From an uncultured Verrucomicrobiae bacterium (lineage in GTDB: Bacteria > Verrucomicrobiota > Verrucomicrobiia > Chthoniobacterales > Terrimicrobiaceae): a DNA stretch of 64,000 nucleotides. Made by a program: the position numbers and the translations under genes. Position 1 is the first letter of the stretch. Each line of letters begins with the position of its first letter. This document shows, one piece after another, positions 4,018 to 10,858 of the stretch. The stretch is from NCBI GenBank assembly GCA_963706955.1, contig CAVPOC010000008.1, positions 192,001 to 256,000 of the forward strand. Direction: 5' to 3'. The notes under the pieces were generated by a model. The model had not been told where the DNA came from, did not search any database, and saw only the letters and a program-made list of their open reading frames with translations.

Positions 4018-5373
4018 TCACGAGCTCCAGCGAATCTCGATGCGAAGCAGTTGATTCTGCAAGGTAGCTCGACAGGTTGCGCCGAGCCGCTCGGTGCAGG
4101 CAGCCACGACGGCCAGGCCTAAACCGGCGTGCCCCTTTTCGGAACGCGCTTCTGATTTTCGCCAGAACCGTTCGAACAGATGGGGAATGTCTTCCGCCTC
4201 GAGCTCGGGCGCCTCATTGCTTACCGCCAGGCAATCGGTTGATGCCTCCACGAGCACGTGTGCTCCTTTGGGTGCGTGGTTGACCGCATTTCCAAGCAGG
4301 TTATTTAGAATCGCTGTCCACAGGAGCGGGTCGGTTACGATTGCGGTGTTCTCGACCTTGGTGTCAATGGTCAAAGCTCGCTTTTCGGTCGACTCAACGA
4401 CCCGGGCCACGCAACTGCGGACACTTTCGACCAAGTCAAGTTTCGCGGACTCTACGTGAACCCTCTCGTTTTCCGCGCTGGAGAGCAGCGACAGCTTATC
4501 GAGCAACGCTTCATTCTCGGCGATCGCTTCGAGCATTTCTTCGCCATGGCGGCGATTGAATTCCTGGGGCCAATTGGTCACCAATTCCGTCATCACCTTG
4601 AGTTCAGTGAGTGGGGTGCGCAGTTCGTGAGCAGCGTACGAGCTAAAGCGACGTTCACGGTCGAAACCTGCTTCGAGCCGTTCGAGCATTTCATTGAGCT
4701 TTTCGGTGATGGGCTGCAATTCCTTCGGCAGTTGGGCGGTCGGGAGACGTTGGTGCAAGTGCGCCGCCTGTATGCTGCGCAGTTGACGGCCGAGGTCGTC
4801 AAGAGGTCGGAGGCCTAGCTTGAGGCACATGTGCACCAGGAAGACGGTCAAAATCAGGCCTGCCAGTCCAACGCCTGCCAGGATTAGAACTATGGAGTGG
4901 AGCGATCGTTCCAACCCACCGCTATAGCTTGCCACAATCACCCTGAGCGTTCCTGACTGCGTTGACTCCCCGGATGGGAATGATTTCGAGAGCGCTCTTC
5001 CGCTCCGTCCGTCGGGAAGTTTGATGGCGCCATATGCTGGCAAAGTCTTAACGTCGTGGGAGATCAAGTGATCGCCTCCCAAGGAGGGCGATTTTTCTAA
5101 CGTCCGCCCGTCTGGTCCCAACACCTCAAAGAAATCTCCACCGGCGCGCGAACCAAACCCCGCGAATTCCTGCACGTTGAGATCGATTTCCAGATCTTGC
5201 TCGTCCAGGTCCGCCGCGACGATAAGCGCCTGGGCCTTGGCGGCAAGGGTGGCATCGAACTGGGCTGTCAAGACAGCCCGGATCGTCCAGTAGAGAGCGA
5301 CTCCGCCGCCGAGCAGGAGAAGCGCGATGCCACCACATACGAGAAGCGTCATGCGGCGGCGGATCGAGATCAT
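4018..5373 (-). CDS. Sensor histidine kinase, QseC/CusS-like (2 TM, HAMP, HisKA, HATPase)
   Basis: H-box AAHELRTPL, N-box NNLLGNAVNH, F-box LFERFWR, G2 GLGLA. Overlaps the response regulator stop. Confidence 0.9.
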   Translation of the reverse strand: MISIRRRMTLLVCGGIALLLLGGGVALYWTIRAVLTAQFDATLAAKAQALIVAADLDEQDLEIDLNVQEFAGFGSRAGGDFFEVLGPDGRTLEKSPSLGGDHLISHDVKTLPAYGAIKLPDGRSGRALSKSFPSGESTQSGTLRVIVASYSGGLERSLHSIVLILAGVGLAGLILTVFLVHMCLKLGLRPLDDLGRQLRSIQAAHLHQRLPTAQLPKELQPITEKLNEMLERLEAGFDRERRFSSYAAHELRTPLTELKVMTELVTNWPQEFNRRHGEEMLEAIAENEALLDKLSLLSSAENERVHVESAKLDLVESVRSCVARVVESTEKRALTIDTKVENTAIVTDPLLWTAILNNLLGNAVNHAPKGAHVLVEASTDCLAVSNEAPELEAEDIPHLFERFWRKSEARSEKGHAGLGLAVVAACTERLGATCRATLQNQLLRIEIRWSS

Positions 5374-6044
5374 TGCGGGTGCAGAACGTAGCCAAGTCCT
5401 CGGCGCGTCTGGATAATCGAGGCGCCGCCTGCCGAAGCCAACTTTTGTCGCAGCGAATAGACAGCCGCATCCACAGCATTGCTTAGGGGATTGTCGCTTT
5501 CGGAGTAGATGTGCGCTTCGATTTGCTCCCGGCTAAATACTTGTCCCGGTTTGCGAGCCAGGCACTCAAGAAGGGAAAATTCTCGCGCGGTCAAGACAAT
5601 GTGCTTTCCAGCGCGGACCACCTTCTTGGCTGCCAGATCAATCTCGAGATCGCCCACCTGGACGCGGGAGTCGGCCTGACCGTACCGCCGGCGTCGGACG
5701 ACAGCCTCGAGACGAGCGTCAAGTTCCGCAATGGCAAACGGCTTCGTCAGGTAGTCATCTGCACCAAGGGCGAGTCCTTTCACGCGATCATCAAGTCCGT
5801 TGAGCGCCGTCAGGATGATGATGGGTGTGTCTTTTCCACGCCGGCGCCATCGTTCGAGCAAATGAAGCCCATTCTGTTTTGGGAGCATAAGGTCGAGCAC
5901 GATGGCATCATAGCCATGGATTCCGACAAGGGTTTCTCCTTCTTCGGCATCTTGCGCCTCATCGACGGCATGGCCAAGGCGCGTCAGCGCCTTGGCCAGC
6001 GTCGTGCGGAGGCGGTGCGAGTCCTCAACGAGGAGCAGGCGCAC
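5370..6044 (-). CDS. OmpR-family response regulator
   Basis: LLVEDS, DLMLP, GADDYLTKPF, LTAREF and winged-helix IQTRRGLGY. Confidence 0.95.
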   Translation of the reverse strand: MRLLLVEDSHRLRTTLAKALTRLGHAVDEAQDAEEGETLVGIHGYDAIVLDLMLPKQNGLHLLERWRRRGKDTPIIILTALNGLDDRVKGLALGADDYLTKPFAIAELDARLEAVVRRRRYGQADSRVQVGDLEIDLAAKKVVRAGKHIVLTAREFSLLECLARKPGQVFSREQIEAHIYSESDNPLSNAVDAAVYSLRQKLASAGGASIIQTRRGLGYVLHPQ

Positions 6045-6091
6045 GGAAAGACAGAATGCGAAGTTCCGATTTGTGCGGGCTCATTGACGGG

Positions 6092-6574
6092 TCAGTCCTC
6101 CGGATCTTCAGTTTGGTTGATCAGGGTGCCATCCTCAGCGATCAAGACATCTAAATCGGGGGCCTTGTGTCTGTCGATTTCCAACGAGTATATGGTCTTC
6201 CCATCGGTGACCTCGCGGTCGACGCCATCATCGAGCTCTCCTCCGGCGGGCACAAGCTTTGCAGCAGCCTCGCGGACGGCGGTGGGGGCGTCAGCAAGGT
6301 CGATTTCCTCACGCGTTTTGATCAGTTTGCCATCGCTTCCGACAAGCATTTTCAGGTCGTCCCTCCTGCCGGGCAGATCAATTTCCGCCACATAGAGCGT
6401 GCGATCGTCGATGGTGATCTTTTTTACCTCGTCGACTTTGCCGTCCCGCGCATTGGCGCGAATTGTCTCCTGAACATTGGCGGGGCATTTCTCCAACTCG
6501 ATCTCATTATCGGCGCGCAGAGAAAAGGCAGTGCCCAGAAGAGCAAGAGCAATCAGAATTTTGGGTGATTTCAT
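6092..6574 (-). CDS. Secreted PepSY-like (BLIP-like) repeat protein
   Basis: Signal peptide, then two repeats (LEKCPANVQETI...DGKLI and LADAPTAVREAA...DGTLI). First gene of a PepSY-RR-HK operon. Confidence 0.75.
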   Translation of the reverse strand: MKSPKILIALALLGTAFSLRADNEIELEKCPANVQETIRANARDGKVDEVKKITIDDRTLYVAEIDLPGRRDDLKMLVGSDGKLIKTREEIDLADAPTAVREAAAKLVPAGGELDDGVDREVTDGKTIYSLEIDRHKAPDLDVLIAEDGTLINQTEDPED

Positions 6575-6913: not shown

Positions 6914-7087
6914 ATGAAAACACCCGAACTCTCGGAACTCAGTGCTTTGGAAATGCAATCCGTCAGCGGCGGCGTGGCACGTGCCGCCGGCAGACGCGGC
7001 GGTGGGCGCTTCATTTTCCTTCTCCTTCTCCTACTCCTCGGCCGGAGTCGCGCTCCTGTTGGCGATCCTGTCGGAGCCCAGCGCTAA
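6914..7087 (+). CDS. Putative 57-aa precursor peptide with double-glycine leader
   Basis: MKTPELSELSALEMQSVSGG|VARAAGRRGGGRFIFLLLLLLLGRSRAPVGDPVGAQR. The leader matches the ELSxxELxxVxGG consensus; the upstream region is A-rich. Below the ORF-track length cutoff. Confidence 0.65.
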   Translation: MKTPELSELSALEMQSVSGGVARAAGRRGGGRFIFLLLLLLLGRSRAPVGDPVGAQR

Positions 7088-7166
7088 TGGCTCATCGTTG
7101 AAACCGTTGAGGGTTTCGGCGAGAGGTCGGGCTGCGAGCCAAACAGCGGGAGCTTAGAAGCAGTGG

Positions 7167-7973
7167 CTAATCCGCCTGGAATTCGGAAAACGCCTCCACC
7201 GCGAAGCTAACGACCGGTTCTGCTTTTCCCTTCACGTATTCGGAGGGCAGTTCCCGCAATTTGAAGCGTCCGTCGAGCGCGGCGCGAACATCGGCGCTGA
7301 TCAAGATACCGACGCCATGCTTGCGGGTGAGGCTTTCAATGCGCGCGGCAGTATTCACGACATCGCCGATGACGGTGTATTCGAGATTCTCCCGCGAACC
7401 GACCACGCCCGCGACCACATTTCCGCTGTGAACTCCGATCCGCACATCCAGTGGAGGAAGGCCTTCGTTTCGCAGATCCTCATTGTAAGCGCTAATGCTA
7501 TCGCGCAAAGCGACCGCGGCGATGACGGCATCCATCGCATGCCAGGCATTGCTTTCTGGCGCGCCGAAGATTGCCATTACCCCGTCGCCAATGAACTTGG
7601 CCACGTGACCGCCATGATGCGTCACGGCGGTGCTGGCAGCTTCGAAGTAGCCATTAAGAATGCGGACGAGGGTTTCCGGGCTCAAAGTTTCGCTCAAGGC
7701 TGTAAATTCGACGATATCCGCGAAAAGGACGGTTACTTGCCGAGTCTCACCGGAGGTCGACACCCCGCGCTTGATCACCTCCTCGACGACACGTTGCGGC
7801 GCGAATTGATGAAAGGCCTGCTGTAAATTCTGCAGATCGACGGTCGCCTTTTCACGGGCTGCCCAAAGAAGATTCGCTCTCCTTTTCACACGAAAAAGAG
7901 AGATGGCGATGGCCGCGTTGAGGAGGACCGATGCGGCGGCGATACCGATCAAGGCCCTGGACCATTTCAACAT
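7167..7973 (-). CDS. Class III adenylate cyclase with a single N-terminal TM helix
   Basis: VLFADIVEFT, KFIGDG, RIGVHSG, YTVIGDVVNTAARIE; Lys/Thr specificity pair. Start overlaps the upstream stop (ATGTTGA). Confidence 0.9.
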   Translation of the reverse strand: MLKWSRALIGIAAASVLLNAAIAISLFRVKRRANLLWAAREKATVDLQNLQQAFHQFAPQRVVEEVIKRGVSTSGETRQVTVLFADIVEFTALSETLSPETLVRILNGYFEAASTAVTHHGGHVAKFIGDGVMAIFGAPESNAWHAMDAVIAAVALRDSISAYNEDLRNEGLPPLDVRIGVHSGNVVAGVVGSRENLEYTVIGDVVNTAARIESLTRKHGVGILISADVRAALDGRFKLRELPSEYVKGKAEPVVSFAVEAFSEFQAD

Positions 7974-9052
7974 CGGTGGAGCAGAATACTCATGCGCGCG
8001 AGACCATTGGCGTAGCATATCAACCCAATGACCTCGAGCACCACCTCCCGCTTTATCCCAGCGGCAAAGGTCTGGGCAACCTCTTGCAATCGCCTGGTTT
8101 GGTAGCGAACTGTCTCGCGGGCGAAACCCAAAACCTTTTGTTCAAAGGAATTTAGTTTCGGCGACGTCAGATAGCTTAGCACGTGCTGGATCTCCGGATC
8201 GGTCCAGCCGTCGCCGCGGAGAGCTTCGGTCGCTTCGGCTTCGCAAGCCTGACACCCGAGACCACGGGCCACCACCGCAAAGATAAGCGCCTTTACCCGT
8301 CTTGAAGTAATGGTGGAATTCCAGGCTCCATTGAGAACCGTAGCGAGCGCTGCGCTCGCCGGAGAACCTTCCAATGCCCGAACAATGCCGGCACCGGGAC
8401 CACTGAATTCAGCAGGATACGGAACGCTTTGAACGGAAGAAAGCGCCGTGCGAAATTCCTTTCGGGTGAACGGTCGTTTCAACTTGTCGAACCAGTTTGC
8501 GTCGATTTCTTCCAATTGAGAGGGTGGCACGGCGAGCAGCGTCGCCAGCCTGTTTCCCCCCGCATTAAGACCGGCAAGATAGGCTATTTCGGCGATCTCG
8601 AGCTGCGAATAACCGGCGGCCGTGAGTTCGCGCAGGTCGCTTTCTGACGGACGCGGCGCCGACCGGGAGACCTTGCGAGCAAATTCCAAGGCTGCTTGCT
8701 CCTTGTTCGTCAGTTGGTTGGTGGCGAAACTCTCTTCCAATTCTCGAATCAAACCTTCGGGATAGCCCAAAATCTTCAACATGCTTCGGAATGCGCCATA
8801 ACAATGTCGACAAGAGCTATCCATTGCCACAACCATGCTGATGAAAGCTCTCAAAGGGACTGAGATACCCGGAGTGACGCGAGCTTCCCCGATTTGTTCC
8901 GCATCCATCAACCAGCGAACCGGGGTAAGATACTTCGCCAGGTTCGAGGCGAAGCCGAAGCGCCTGACGACTTCCCTTTCCCAGGCCGGATCCGCAATTG
9001 CCGGCAGCAACGGGACGTCGCACCAATCAATTTGGTCGAGCGAGTAAGCCAT
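7967..9052 (-). CDS. Double AhpD/carboxymuconolactone-decarboxylase-fold protein, copy 2 (361 aa)
   Basis: Two modules: ISMVVAMDSSCRHC...LTNKEQAALEFARKV...GYSQLEIAEI and LIFAVVARGLGCQAC...FEQKVLGFARET...VVLEVIGLI. Confidence 0.75.
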   Translation of the reverse strand: MAYSLDQIDWCDVPLLPAIADPAWEREVVRRFGFASNLAKYLTPVRWLMDAEQIGEARVTPGISVPLRAFISMVVAMDSSCRHCYGAFRSMLKILGYPEGLIRELEESFATNQLTNKEQAALEFARKVSRSAPRPSESDLRELTAAGYSQLEIAEIAYLAGLNAGGNRLATLLAVPPSQLEEIDANWFDKLKRPFTRKEFRTALSSVQSVPYPAEFSGPGAGIVRALEGSPASAALATVLNGAWNSTITSRRVKALIFAVVARGLGCQACEAEATEALRGDGWTDPEIQHVLSYLTSPKLNSFEQKVLGFARETVRYQTRRLQEVAQTFAAGIKREVVLEVIGLICYANGLARMSILLHRC

Positions 9053-9280
9053 CGCATCGACACTTAACAGCCAGCGCAACAGGCAAGCAACAGGAACCAT
9101 TAAACTTTAAGGTTTGTCCGCCCGACTCGCAAGGGCGCCTAACACCCGCAGATCAATAGCTCGCCCTCGGAAGTTTCACGCCGCAGTTAGGCTCCCAATC
9201 ATCTCGAGGCTTGGGTCTGTCGGGTGGCGTAGCCGGGCGTCCGCCTCTGCGCGTTCAGAGTTTCCGACGGCCGATCCGCC

Positions 9281-9364
9281 TCAGAGAGACCGGAGCGGCT
9301 CGGGTCGTTCGATGGCGAAGGACGAAACGGCGATGCCGATGGAATCCCGAAACGAATTCAGCAT
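9281..9364 (-). pseudogene. Decayed remnant of the adenylate cyclase 5' end
   Basis: ATG overlaps the copy-1 stop exactly as the cyclase ATG overlaps copy 2. MLNSFRDSIGIAVSS aligns with cyclase MLKWSRALIGIAAAS and stops after 27 aa. Confidence 0.55.
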
Positions 9365-10443
9365 CGATGGAGCAGGATGCTCATGCGCGCGACGCCGTTA
9401 GCATAGCTTACCAAACCAATGATCTCCAGCACCAGCTCCCGTTCAAGTCCCTTTGCAAAACCCTGCGCGAGTTCTTGCAGTCGCCGGGTCTGATAGCGAA
9501 CCGTCTCCCTGGCGAAACTCAACACCTTGCGTTCGAAAGGGTCGAGTTTGTTGGAGGTCAGGTAAGTTAGAACGTGCTTAATCTCCGGGTCGGTCCAGCC
9601 TTCGGCGCGAAGAACTTCGGTGGCTTCGGATTCACACGCCTGACAGCCGAGACCACGGGCAACCACCGCGAAAATCAGCGCCTTGACGCGCTTTGAAGTT
9701 ATGGTGGAATTCCACCCGCCATGGAGAATCGTCGCCAGCGCGGCGCCTGCCGGCGAACCTTCCAGAGCTCGAACAATCCCGGCACCCGGACCAATCGATC
9801 CCGCCGGAAAAGGCATGTTGACCACGTAAGAGAGCGCCGTCCGGAATTCTTTTCGCGTGAACGGCCGTTTTAACCTTTCGAACCAATTTGCGTCGATTTC
9901 TTCGAGCGGGTCTGGCGGCAAAGCGAGCAGGGTGGCCAGGCGGTTACCCGCGGCATTGATAGCCGCCAGATAGGCGATCTCAGCGATCTCGAGCTGTGAA
10001 AAGCCTACGGCCTTTAATTCTCGCAGGTCGCTTTCTCCTGGGCGCGGCGCTGACCGGGAGATCTTGCGTGCGAACTCCAGAGCGGCTTGCTCCTTGTTCG
10101 TCAGTTCGTCGCCGGCAAGACTCTCTTCCAATTTTCGGATTACACCCTCGGGATATCCCAAGATCTTCAACATGCTTCGAAATGCGCCGTAGCAATGTCG
10201 ACACGAGCTATCCATCGCTACTGCCATGCTGATGAAAGCCCGCAAGGGAACGGAGATGCTCGGTGTCACCCGAGCCTCGACGAGTTGCTCCGCCTCCATC
10301 AACCAGCGAACCGGGGTAAGAAATTTTAGCACGTTCGATGCAAAGCCGAAGCGTCTAACAATTTCCCTTTCCCAGGCCGGATCCGGAACCGCCGGGAGCA
10401 AGGGAACCTCACACCAATCAATCTGCTCAAGCAACGAAGCCAT
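9358..10443 (-). CDS. Double AhpD/CMD-fold protein, copy 1 (361 aa)
   Basis: Same length as 7967..9052 and roughly 80% identical by eye; SCRHC and GCQAC are conserved. Confidence 0.75.
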   Translation of the reverse strand: MASLLEQIDWCEVPLLPAVPDPAWEREIVRRFGFASNVLKFLTPVRWLMEAEQLVEARVTPSISVPLRAFISMAVAMDSSCRHCYGAFRSMLKILGYPEGVIRKLEESLAGDELTNKEQAALEFARKISRSAPRPGESDLRELKAVGFSQLEIAEIAYLAAINAAGNRLATLLALPPDPLEEIDANWFERLKRPFTRKEFRTALSYVVNMPFPAGSIGPGAGIVRALEGSPAGAALATILHGGWNSTITSKRVKALIFAVVARGLGCQACESEATEVLRAEGWTDPEIKHVLTYLTSNKLDPFERKVLSFARETVRYQTRRLQELAQGFAKGLERELVLEIIGLVSYANGVARMSILLHRC

Positions 10444-10552
10444 TCGTTTCGTACTTAACAGCGAGCGCCGCCGGCAAGCAAACAGGAAGCGTTAATGTTC
10501 ACCGCACGCAGCGTGCATCCCTGGACCCGCGGCGCTGGCTCAAACCACGAGA

Positions 10553-10858
10553 TCAATAACTGGCATCGGGAGGGTCGATATTGGCAAACTTCACACCACG
10601 TCGCGGATCCGCCATCATCTCGGCTACAGTATCTCGCCAGGTGGCGTAGTGTGGCGTCCGTTTGTGCGCCTCCGGAGCTTCCGGCGTCCGGTACGCCTCA
10701 GAGAGAACAAAGCAGGTTGGGTCGTCGGATTGTTGAAGGACGTCGAATCGGGCAATTCCCGTTTCGTTTCGGCTCGCCTGAGCATTGGCCAACGTCGCTG
10801 CCATGAATGCCTCCACCTGATCGGGCTTAACTTTGACGTGAACGTGAACAACCAGCAT
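10553..10858 (-). CDS. ABM-family protein (LsrG/YgiN-like)
   Basis: VKVKPDQVEAF...E.G..RFDVLQ...F.L.E.Y...AHK.TPHY..WR. Confidence 0.85.
   Translation of the reverse strand: MLVVHVHVKVKPDQVEAFMAATLANAQASRNETGIARFDVLQQSDDPTCFVLSEAYRTPEAPEAHKRTPHYATWRDTVAEMMADPRRGVKFANIDPPDASY

Follow-up and report, generated by a model that had tools for sequence, protein, structure and literature searches.

What controls a nucleotidyl cyclase that carries no sensory domain of its own, and could the double-AhpD protein encoded immediately upstream of it supply that control? The question is raised by a locus in a 64,000-nucleotide stretch of DNA (the window; assembly GCA_963706955.1, contig CAVPOC010000008.1, positions 192,001 to 256,000) from an uncultured Verrucomicrobiae bacterium of the family Terrimicrobiaceae. 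Two copies of a double-AhpD/CMD protein, here called the partner, and a class III cyclase follow one another on the minus strand between positions 7167 and 10443, in the order copy A, copy B, cyclase. The inputs of most bacterial class III cyclases are unknown, and dedicated protein regulators acting on them in trans are few. Our comparisons show that the pairing of partner and cyclase is far beyond chance, and they make it very likely that the partner is a dedicated regulatory binding partner of the cyclase. The reading that we favour, with a probability of roughly 55%, is that a membrane-tethered cyclase dimer is gated by a sestrin-fold subunit that docks through its C-terminal half and senses through the CxxC of its N-terminal half. 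The regulator-cyclase module is real, widespread and apparently undescribed.

The original prediction, made from the letters of the window, described a 361-residue double-AhpD protein that ends in LLHRC and overlaps the cyclase start codon. The open reading frames (ORFs) bear this out: the cyclase ATG overlaps the stop codon of copy B by 7 nt (ATGTTGA), and the paralogous copy A is alike, ending in the same residues and sharing 81% identity with copy B. Purifying selection acts on copies A and B alike (dN 0.11, dS 0.99, dN/dS 0.11). In a Pfam scan the partners match only PF02627 (CMD) and the cyclase only PF00211 (Guanylate_cyc, E 2.6e-31), and the public annotation of partner genes says nothing more than “alkylhydroperoxidase family enzyme” or similar.

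Searches for relatives of the partner found that the gene pair is conserved well beyond this family. From 282 relatives in GTDB genomes the best 80 were kept, corresponding to 77 loci; apart from three at a contig edge and two without a cyclase, all carry a class III cyclase directly downstream of the partner (72 of 74 evaluable loci, covering at least nine named phyla; frameshifted in L032 and L086). The closest named relatives are Terrimicrobiaceae of the Verrucomicrobiota. Where the cyclase start could be assigned (70 pairs), it overlaps the partner stop codon in 57. The 40 most divergent members served as the basis of a second query, which returned 388 relatives from metagenomes; 80 of these were kept, and the cyclase is adjacent in 56 of 66 evaluable loci, with 10 lacking it and a further 14 too short to judge. 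The conserved downstream neighbour that the original prediction proposed to look for is thus present in both sets. Its other proposal, a cyclase as fusion partner, found no counterpart at E<=1e-20 among 8000 scored candidates of 670-2000 aa, which is weak evidence; one 514-residue candidate (P0092) was rejected as an artefact, as it starts mid-protein and has garbled segments like those of the frameshifted locus L032.

Both sets were ranked by similarity, and evenly drawn genome samples were therefore added. Among 301 genomes from the order of the Variovorax locus L055, all five cyclases of the subfamily adjoin a partner, and a sixth genome (G149, L222) has a truncated partner with no cyclase adjacent. 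In 151 genomes from the class of L047, 28 of 28 cyclases adjoin a partner, one of them at the edge of a contig. Of the 33 partner matches in that class, 31 adjoin a cyclase, whole or partial. In the two samples combined, every subfamily cyclase (33/33) has a partner beside it. Deletions or frameshifts have damaged both genes of the pair in G761 (L220) and G863 (L221); these broken pairs, like the truncated G149 partner, could reflect either errors of assembly or decay of the two genes together. G046 has a partner and an NPWQ-type cyclase that are not linked, which fits action in trans. When 401 genomes were sampled from the phylum to which L035 belongs, the partner was found only in the genome around which the sample was centred. 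The partner has been duplicated alongside a single cyclase at least four times independently (L035, L038, L036, L076, L017-L019, L021 and L024), in the order partner-partner-cyclase or partner-cyclase-partner.

The two genes also share a history. Trees of 67 partner-cyclase pairs have 42 of 64 splits in common, and of the 41 partner splits with good support, 40 conflict with no well-supported split of the cyclase tree. Patristic distances from 40 thinned pairs correlate with a Mantel r of 0.89 (permutation maximum 0.26), kinship being a factor that inflates such figures. Because Bacteroidota sit at two distant places in the partner tree and the cyclase tree alike, the trees indicate that the two genes move together. 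In a quick tree from which five poor rows were excluded, 26 partner cyclases group together to the exclusion of 39 other class III domains, drawn from six genomes (Shimodaira-Hasegawa-like approximate likelihood ratio test, 99). The clade has a residue of its own: Trp144, found in all 67 partner cyclases, occurs in none of 44 other class III cyclases. Asp234 is found in 60 of the 67.

Coupling, co-phylogeny, the private tryptophan and the residue pattern are computational observations, and to them structural modelling adds a predicted interface. We modelled two cyclase chains (residues 25-268) with one copy B, supplying our own alignments, a use that lies outside the calibration of the scoring tool. 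The interface score ipSAE is 0.68 (0.63-0.70 across runs), against 0.26 for the best of three controls; it passes the mark used for this score, which 116 of 157 solved pairs reach and 2 of 215 mismatched ones, counts that are approximate here for the same reason. At least 82% of contacts are shared between runs, and the partner is modelled with a predicted local distance difference test score (pLDDT) of at least 85. The lowest-error contacts join W144 to partner residues 293-295 and 312, and cyclase residues 141-143 to partner residues 263-266. The predicted interface thus brings the clade-private surface of the cyclase against the C-terminal module of the partner, at the turn before its second CxxC. 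L295 and R312 occur in 105 of 105 cyclase-adjacent partners, and copy A retains the predicted contact residues R263, G266, L292, L295 and R312. The model supports, and does not show, binding of partner and cyclase. Together with near-obligate coupling across phyla, congruent trees and the private Trp, it lends good support to the earlier proposal of a dedicated subunit acting in trans.

The fold of the partner points to sestrins. An AlphaFold2 model of copy B (pLDDT 92) has human Sestrin2 (5CUF) as its best whole-chain match (Z 21.7, 270 aligned residues, root-mean-square deviation 3.3), followed by single-module AhpD-like proteins that cover residues 11-187 at Z 12-13.5; the comparison with AhpD and sestrin suggested at the outset is therefore led by the latter. 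Foldseek agrees on Sestrin2 (template modelling score 0.58), sequence identity to which is 11%. Searches of the ESM Atlas returned CMD-labelled clusters only.

Across 157 full-length homologues, C81 and C84 are the only invariant residues (157/157), with the intervening R82 in 156. The AhpD helix-turn-helix with its CxxC is present, and the AhpD proton relay of Glu (-12), Tyr/His (+2) and His (CxxC+4) is lost to a varying degree. In 2PRR the relay comprises Glu74, Cys86, Tyr88, Cys89 and His93, the last corresponding to a His required for Sestrin2 activity, as described in the accessible text of the Sestrin2 structure report (PMC4674687). Both window copies have SCRHC and GCQAC, Phe88 and Ala274 at the position of the relay His, and Ala69 and Ala255 twelve residues before the first Cys, in the register of an alignment to 3C1L and 2PFX; the relay positions of the first module thus read A69, H83 and F88. 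The loss of His, anticipated from the window, extends to the family (His88 in 11/157, together with an acidic residue at 69 in 9/157, and no His in the second module of any of the 157). Two other expectations hold for the window copies and not for the family: the second CxxC is complete in only 62 of 157 homologues (C267 in 139, C270 in 64), and the exchange of the relay Glu for Ala is far from general, an acidic residue standing at position 69 in 88. TIGR01926, the model for AhpD-like peroxidase-related enzymes, scores 64.9 and 52.3 bits against the partners, below its cut-off of 81.8. An invariant dithiol without its relay would fit a switch or a metal site better than a peroxidase.

The cyclase itself is, as first supposed, without a sensory domain: beyond the single Pfam match it has one N-terminal hydrophobic segment, whose best Kyte-Doolittle 17-mer averages 2.34 (at least 1.6 in 63 of 67 homologues). 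A coiled segment follows and ends in an F-x-x-F-A-P motif positioned like the cyclase transducer element (CTE). The window cyclase has D86, K126, D130, T200, N207, R211 and K248, and a subfamily-specific loop N142-x-W144-H145; the metal-binding aspartates and transition-state residues among these (D86, D130, N207 and R211) are each present in 67 of 67 partner cyclases. By its K126/T200 pair it appears to be of adenylyl type, in keeping with the cAMP module first proposed, and that label proves too narrow for the family. Position 126 is K in 27 of the 67, E in 23 and T in 14, and the 23 with Glu also have Lys198, as in the guanylyl cyclase Cya2, so that about a third of partner cyclases look like guanylyl cyclases. 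A single E488K change turns Cya2 of Synechocystis into an adenylyl cyclase, according to the available text of the report (PMC5995499). The Thr-type enzymes include L044-L047, L049, L050, L056, L065, L070, L074, L081, L083 and L087; in many of them the Asp of the GDxVN motif is replaced by Arg, Ser or Gly, with metal and transition-state residues intact. About 19 further class III cyclase-like matches occur in the 4.2 Mb source genome, and the source organism is therefore rich in cyclic-nucleotide signalling.

In the reading that we favour, a class III cyclase dimer that is anchored in the membrane and lacks a sensory domain would be controlled by a soluble, pseudo-dimeric subunit of sestrin fold encoded just upstream. 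The C-terminal module of the partner, its ancestral active site eroded, is predicted to dock on the N-x-W144 loop together with the end of the helix that leads into it. The N-terminal C81-R-x-C84, having no peroxidase His, would most likely be a thiol switch for an oxidant, an electrophile, a reactive sulfur species or a metal. A change in the N-terminal module would then alter docking, and hence the output of cAMP in the source genome and of cGMP in one clade. Taken overall, we lean towards the signal being read through the N-terminal cysteines. We infer that sensing is by thiol and what kind of signal is read; binding may either activate or inhibit.

Several observations weigh against this reading. 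An acidic residue at position 69 in the majority of homologues, and Y or H at position 83 in 130 of 157, suggest that the family may have kept some activity as peroxidase or reductase. Many of the loci are related, 18 Verrucomicrobiota and 9 Variovorax being among the 72. Twelve loci with room for a cyclase have none adjacent (L037, L048 and the ten metagenome loci, six of which form one clade), G815 has a partner without an adjacent cyclase, and the fragmented genomes G047 and G050 yielded no cyclase of the subfamily. The flanks of 26 loci (92 ORFs) contain no recurring third gene beyond close kin and no shared redox regulon, with one cyclic-nucleotide-binding protein among them. The predicted interface is small (41-55 contacts), and 11 aligned orphan partners keep L295, R312 and R263, so a structural role for these residues is possible as well. 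The redox half and the binding half of Sestrin2 function independently of each other, as far as the accessible text of its report goes (PMC4674687), and a shared architecture therefore does not imply that cysteines control binding.

Two side observations concern these same loci. In the orphan clade (L133, L135, L139, L149, L156 and L157) the partner is followed by a conserved protein of about 310 aa with a signal-peptide-like start, and the orphan-clade partners retain the CxxC and the predicted interface residues. Redox or detoxification genes are scattered among the 92 flanking ORFs, surveyed without a background control and not taken as evidence: glutathione S-transferase (twice), MsrA, AhpC/TSA, Dyp, glyoxalase (twice), SBP56 and ABM.

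Other explanations account for parts of the same evidence. The complex could be as modelled and the partner a sensor of a small, probably anionic ligand, as sestrin is for leucine, with the CxxC a structural or metal site. Near-invariant residues other than the cysteines (W10, W47, R82, R89, R126, R168, R312, N349 and R353) speak for it, the repeated partner duplications are what one would expect if copies diversify the input, and the binding function of Sestrin2, the closest fold, is independent of Cys125 in the accessible text of its report (PMC4674687). We nevertheless judge it unlikely, C81 and C84 being the sole residues found in every homologue and lying at the canonical AhpD redox position. 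It is very unlikely, in our estimate, that the partner is an active thiol enzyme, an alkyl-hydroperoxide reductase or a Bmp8-like protein, that is co-expressed with the cyclase or gates it only incidentally. Its best sequence relatives are indeed of this kind (TIGR01926-type, sub-threshold as noted, with 2PFX, 2PRR and 3C1L), and the CxxC, the Y/H at 83 and often the D/E at 69 are kept; yet the relay His, needed in Sestrin2, is rare in the family, and an enzyme of this kind would leave a dedicated cyclase clade with a private interface Trp, and joint decay, unexplained.

The layout of an upstream partner with overlapping stop and start codons is also that of toxin-antitoxin pairs, and the cyclase never occurs without the partner in the even samples, both of which would suit a constitutive subunit, whether obligate activator, folding chaperone or antitoxin-like inhibitor. 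A scaffold, however, needs no invariant CxxC, and the extra partner copies are held by purifying selection. Nor does a partner that serves as receptor for the cyclic-nucleotide product agree well with a constant partner core beside cyclases of varying base specificity, which fits an input better; we regard this group of explanations as quite unlikely. Pycsar systems pair a PycC cyclase with a cyclic-nucleotide-binding effector, PycTM or PycTIR. A two-gene cassette with a patchy, horizontally moved distribution and a cyclase that matches PycC models could suggest such an anti-phage system. Those matches cover a partial domain, as expected of any class III cyclase; the partner has no PADLOC match, and PADLOC matches in 6 of the 92 flanking ORFs are all to generic helicase, methyltransferase, NYN or oxidoreductase models. 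No match was found in 72,556 plasmids, and 16 of 18 congeneric genomes have one (15 with the module, the 16th with a fragment). With no recurring effector neighbour either, we rejected membership of Pycsar, and an anti-phage role is highly improbable.

The features of the locus are collected in Table 1. In the Terrimicrobiaceae group, the motif ahead of the partner has the form CTTCC(T)GTTTGC-N15-18-GCTGTTAA and lies about 10-15 nt before the partner ATG (upstream of the partners of L018-L034); it is kept ahead of most partner copies of that group. Its strict form occurs once in the source genome, upstream of copy A, and for that reason the motif is probably a module-specific promoter or operator, and the leader would then be very short. 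A variant precedes copy B as well, and the two copies are therefore probably transcribed from separate promoters. The loose form is not enriched genome-wide (7 matches against 8-11 for control spacers), and scans for sigma-70 promoters and terminators gave results at chance level. Four RNA runs yielded short, low-depth contigs only, one of which (392 nt) spans the junction of copy B and the cyclase; contigs of this kind cannot show transcription.

Table 1. Features of the partner-cyclase locus, in window coordinates.
Feature	Position	Strand	Description
Bipartite upstream motif (CTTCCTGTTTGC...GCTGTTAA)	10456..10489	(-)	just before the copy A ATG
Partner copy A	9358..10443	(-)	361-aa double-AhpD/CMD protein, sestrin fold; C81-R-H-C84 and C267-x-x-C270
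Remnant ORF, 27 codons	9281..9364	(-)	begins in the overlap ATGCTGA; first ~13 codons resemble the cyclase N-terminus
Variant of bipartite upstream motif	9064..9098	(-)	before copy B
Partner copy B	7967..9052	(-)	361-aa double-AhpD/CMD protein, sestrin fold; translationally coupled to cyclase
Class III nucleotidyl cyclase	7167..7973	(-)	268 aa; N-terminal membrane anchor, coiled segment, catalytic domain

Copy A terminates in ATGCTGA and is followed by the remnant, whose similarity to the cyclase N-terminus is in register. The downstream part of the remnant is not significant in local alignment against shuffles (score 30 against 23.6+/-3.9, maximum 40), and this remnant argues weakly for a cyclase fragment. 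Longer cyclase remnants follow the first partner copy in the relatives L005 (E 1e-10) and L006. From these and the remnant after copy A, the unit of partner and cyclase was probably duplicated and one cyclase then lost. An ABM-family monooxygenase gene (10553-10858, minus strand) lies directly upstream of copy A on the same strand, and also upstream in L031; outside the Verrucomicrobiota, none was seen beside the module among the 92 scanned flanking ORFs. Just downstream (4018-6574, minus strand) are genes for a PepSY-like secreted protein, a response regulator and a sensor kinase, and between these and the cyclase is a short ORF with a low-complexity Leu-rich stretch (near 6915-7088, plus strand).

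The system consists of two genes in at least nine phyla, including cultured Variovorax and Neolewinella strains, and the naming of a docking residue (W144) and of switch residues (C81 and C84) makes it testable. If the favoured reading is right, the AhpD/CMD fold would join the bacterial sensor repertoire and thiol chemistry would be tied directly to cAMP and cGMP synthesis, which points to an undescribed bacterial route from a chemical stress signal to a second messenger. It would also give a prokaryotic model for the passage from peroxidase to signalling subunit seen in sestrins. Tentatively, and with rather less confidence than in the gated complex itself, the partner might be a functional bacterial counterpart of sestrin, in which the N-terminal CxxC reads a thiol-reactive signal and the C-terminal half, through its decayed active site, switches a dedicated cyclase. 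The output of such cyclases would have been adjusted to cAMP, to cGMP and perhaps to some third specificity, and the passage from enzyme to signalling subunit would then have happened in bacteria too, with the same division of labour.

How close is the likeness to known systems? Sestrins (Sestrin2; 5CUF, 5DJ4) are likewise single-chain pseudo-dimers of two 2PRR-like AhpD modules, and in Sestrin2 and the partner alike the redox cysteine or cysteines lie in the N-terminal half. Binding at or close to the C-terminal active site, now decayed, has been shown for Sestrin2, whose GATOR2-binding DD motif sits at that ancestral site in the accessible text (PMC4674687), and is predicted for the partner; contacts at 263-266, judged by position and not by superposition, would lie at the matching degenerate CxxC turn. 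Unlike Sestrin2, the partner has two cysteines without a relay His in its N-terminal half, and its target is a cyclase rather than GATOR2. Its C-terminal half keeps the helix-turn-helix, usually with one Cys, and lacks the acidic DD/DDYDY hinge that replaces the C-terminal helix as a defining sestrin feature, at least in the portion of the 2024 review of double-AhpD sestrin analogues that was available (PMC11429811): conserved partner columns hold no acidic motif, and the model retains helices 251-264 and 268-280 around RGLGCQAC. The Pfam scan gave no sestrin family at E<=1, and no sestrin chain is among 17 Protein Data Bank sequences matched at E<=10. The partner thus falls outside the sestrins (no DD hinge, no profile match) and outside the AhpD peroxidases (the relay His is missing and the TIGR01926 score falls short). 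Beyond their shared AhpD ancestry, the two double-AhpD fusions may be independent.

Bacterial double-AhpD proteins have been proposed as structural sestrin analogues, namely E. coli YciW and proteins of Rokubacteria, Corynebacterium and Comamonas, which like the partner have two AhpD-like domains in one chain. In the available portion of the same review, the YciW cysteines are spaced 5 and 8 apart, unlike the partner CxxC; the Corynebacterium and Comamonas proteins have cysteines in the C-terminal half only, the reverse of the partner family; and the halves of the Rokubacteria protein are closely alike, whereas those of copy B have no BLAST match to each other (PMC11429811). That portion contains zero mentions of a cyclase, and no description of the partner-cyclase pair was found in the literature searched, which comprised titles and abstract openings, with subscription papers mostly outside it.

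AhpD-like peroxidase-related enzymes (TIGR01926; 2PRR, 2PFX, 3C1L, PA0269 and Bmp8) can be aligned with the N-terminal module (residues ~60-178, E 1.7e-15), the CxxC falling in the same register; compared with them the partner is twice as long, a fused pseudo-dimer, has lost the relay His, has an invariant Arg inside the CxxC and is near-obligately coupled to a cyclase. On the cyclase side, the class III enzymes with a CTE (Cya2, CyaB and bPAC) share the catalytic residues, the coiled linker and the K/E base-specificity switch, and the FxxF(A)P motif of partner cyclases occupies the -FGRY- position of the CTE. Unlike them, partner cyclases have no in-chain sensory domain, possess a private N-x-W-[QH] loop and form a separate clade among those compared. 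Separate, co-cistronic sensors act in trans on second-messenger enzymes in H-NOX/diguanylate cyclase pairs, in PilG/CyaB and in GCAP/retinal guanylyl cyclase; to our knowledge none of these regulators uses the AhpD/CMD fold. The module described here has their logic in common, a separate sensor paired with a cyclase that lacks that input, and differs from them in fold, cofactor and target surface.

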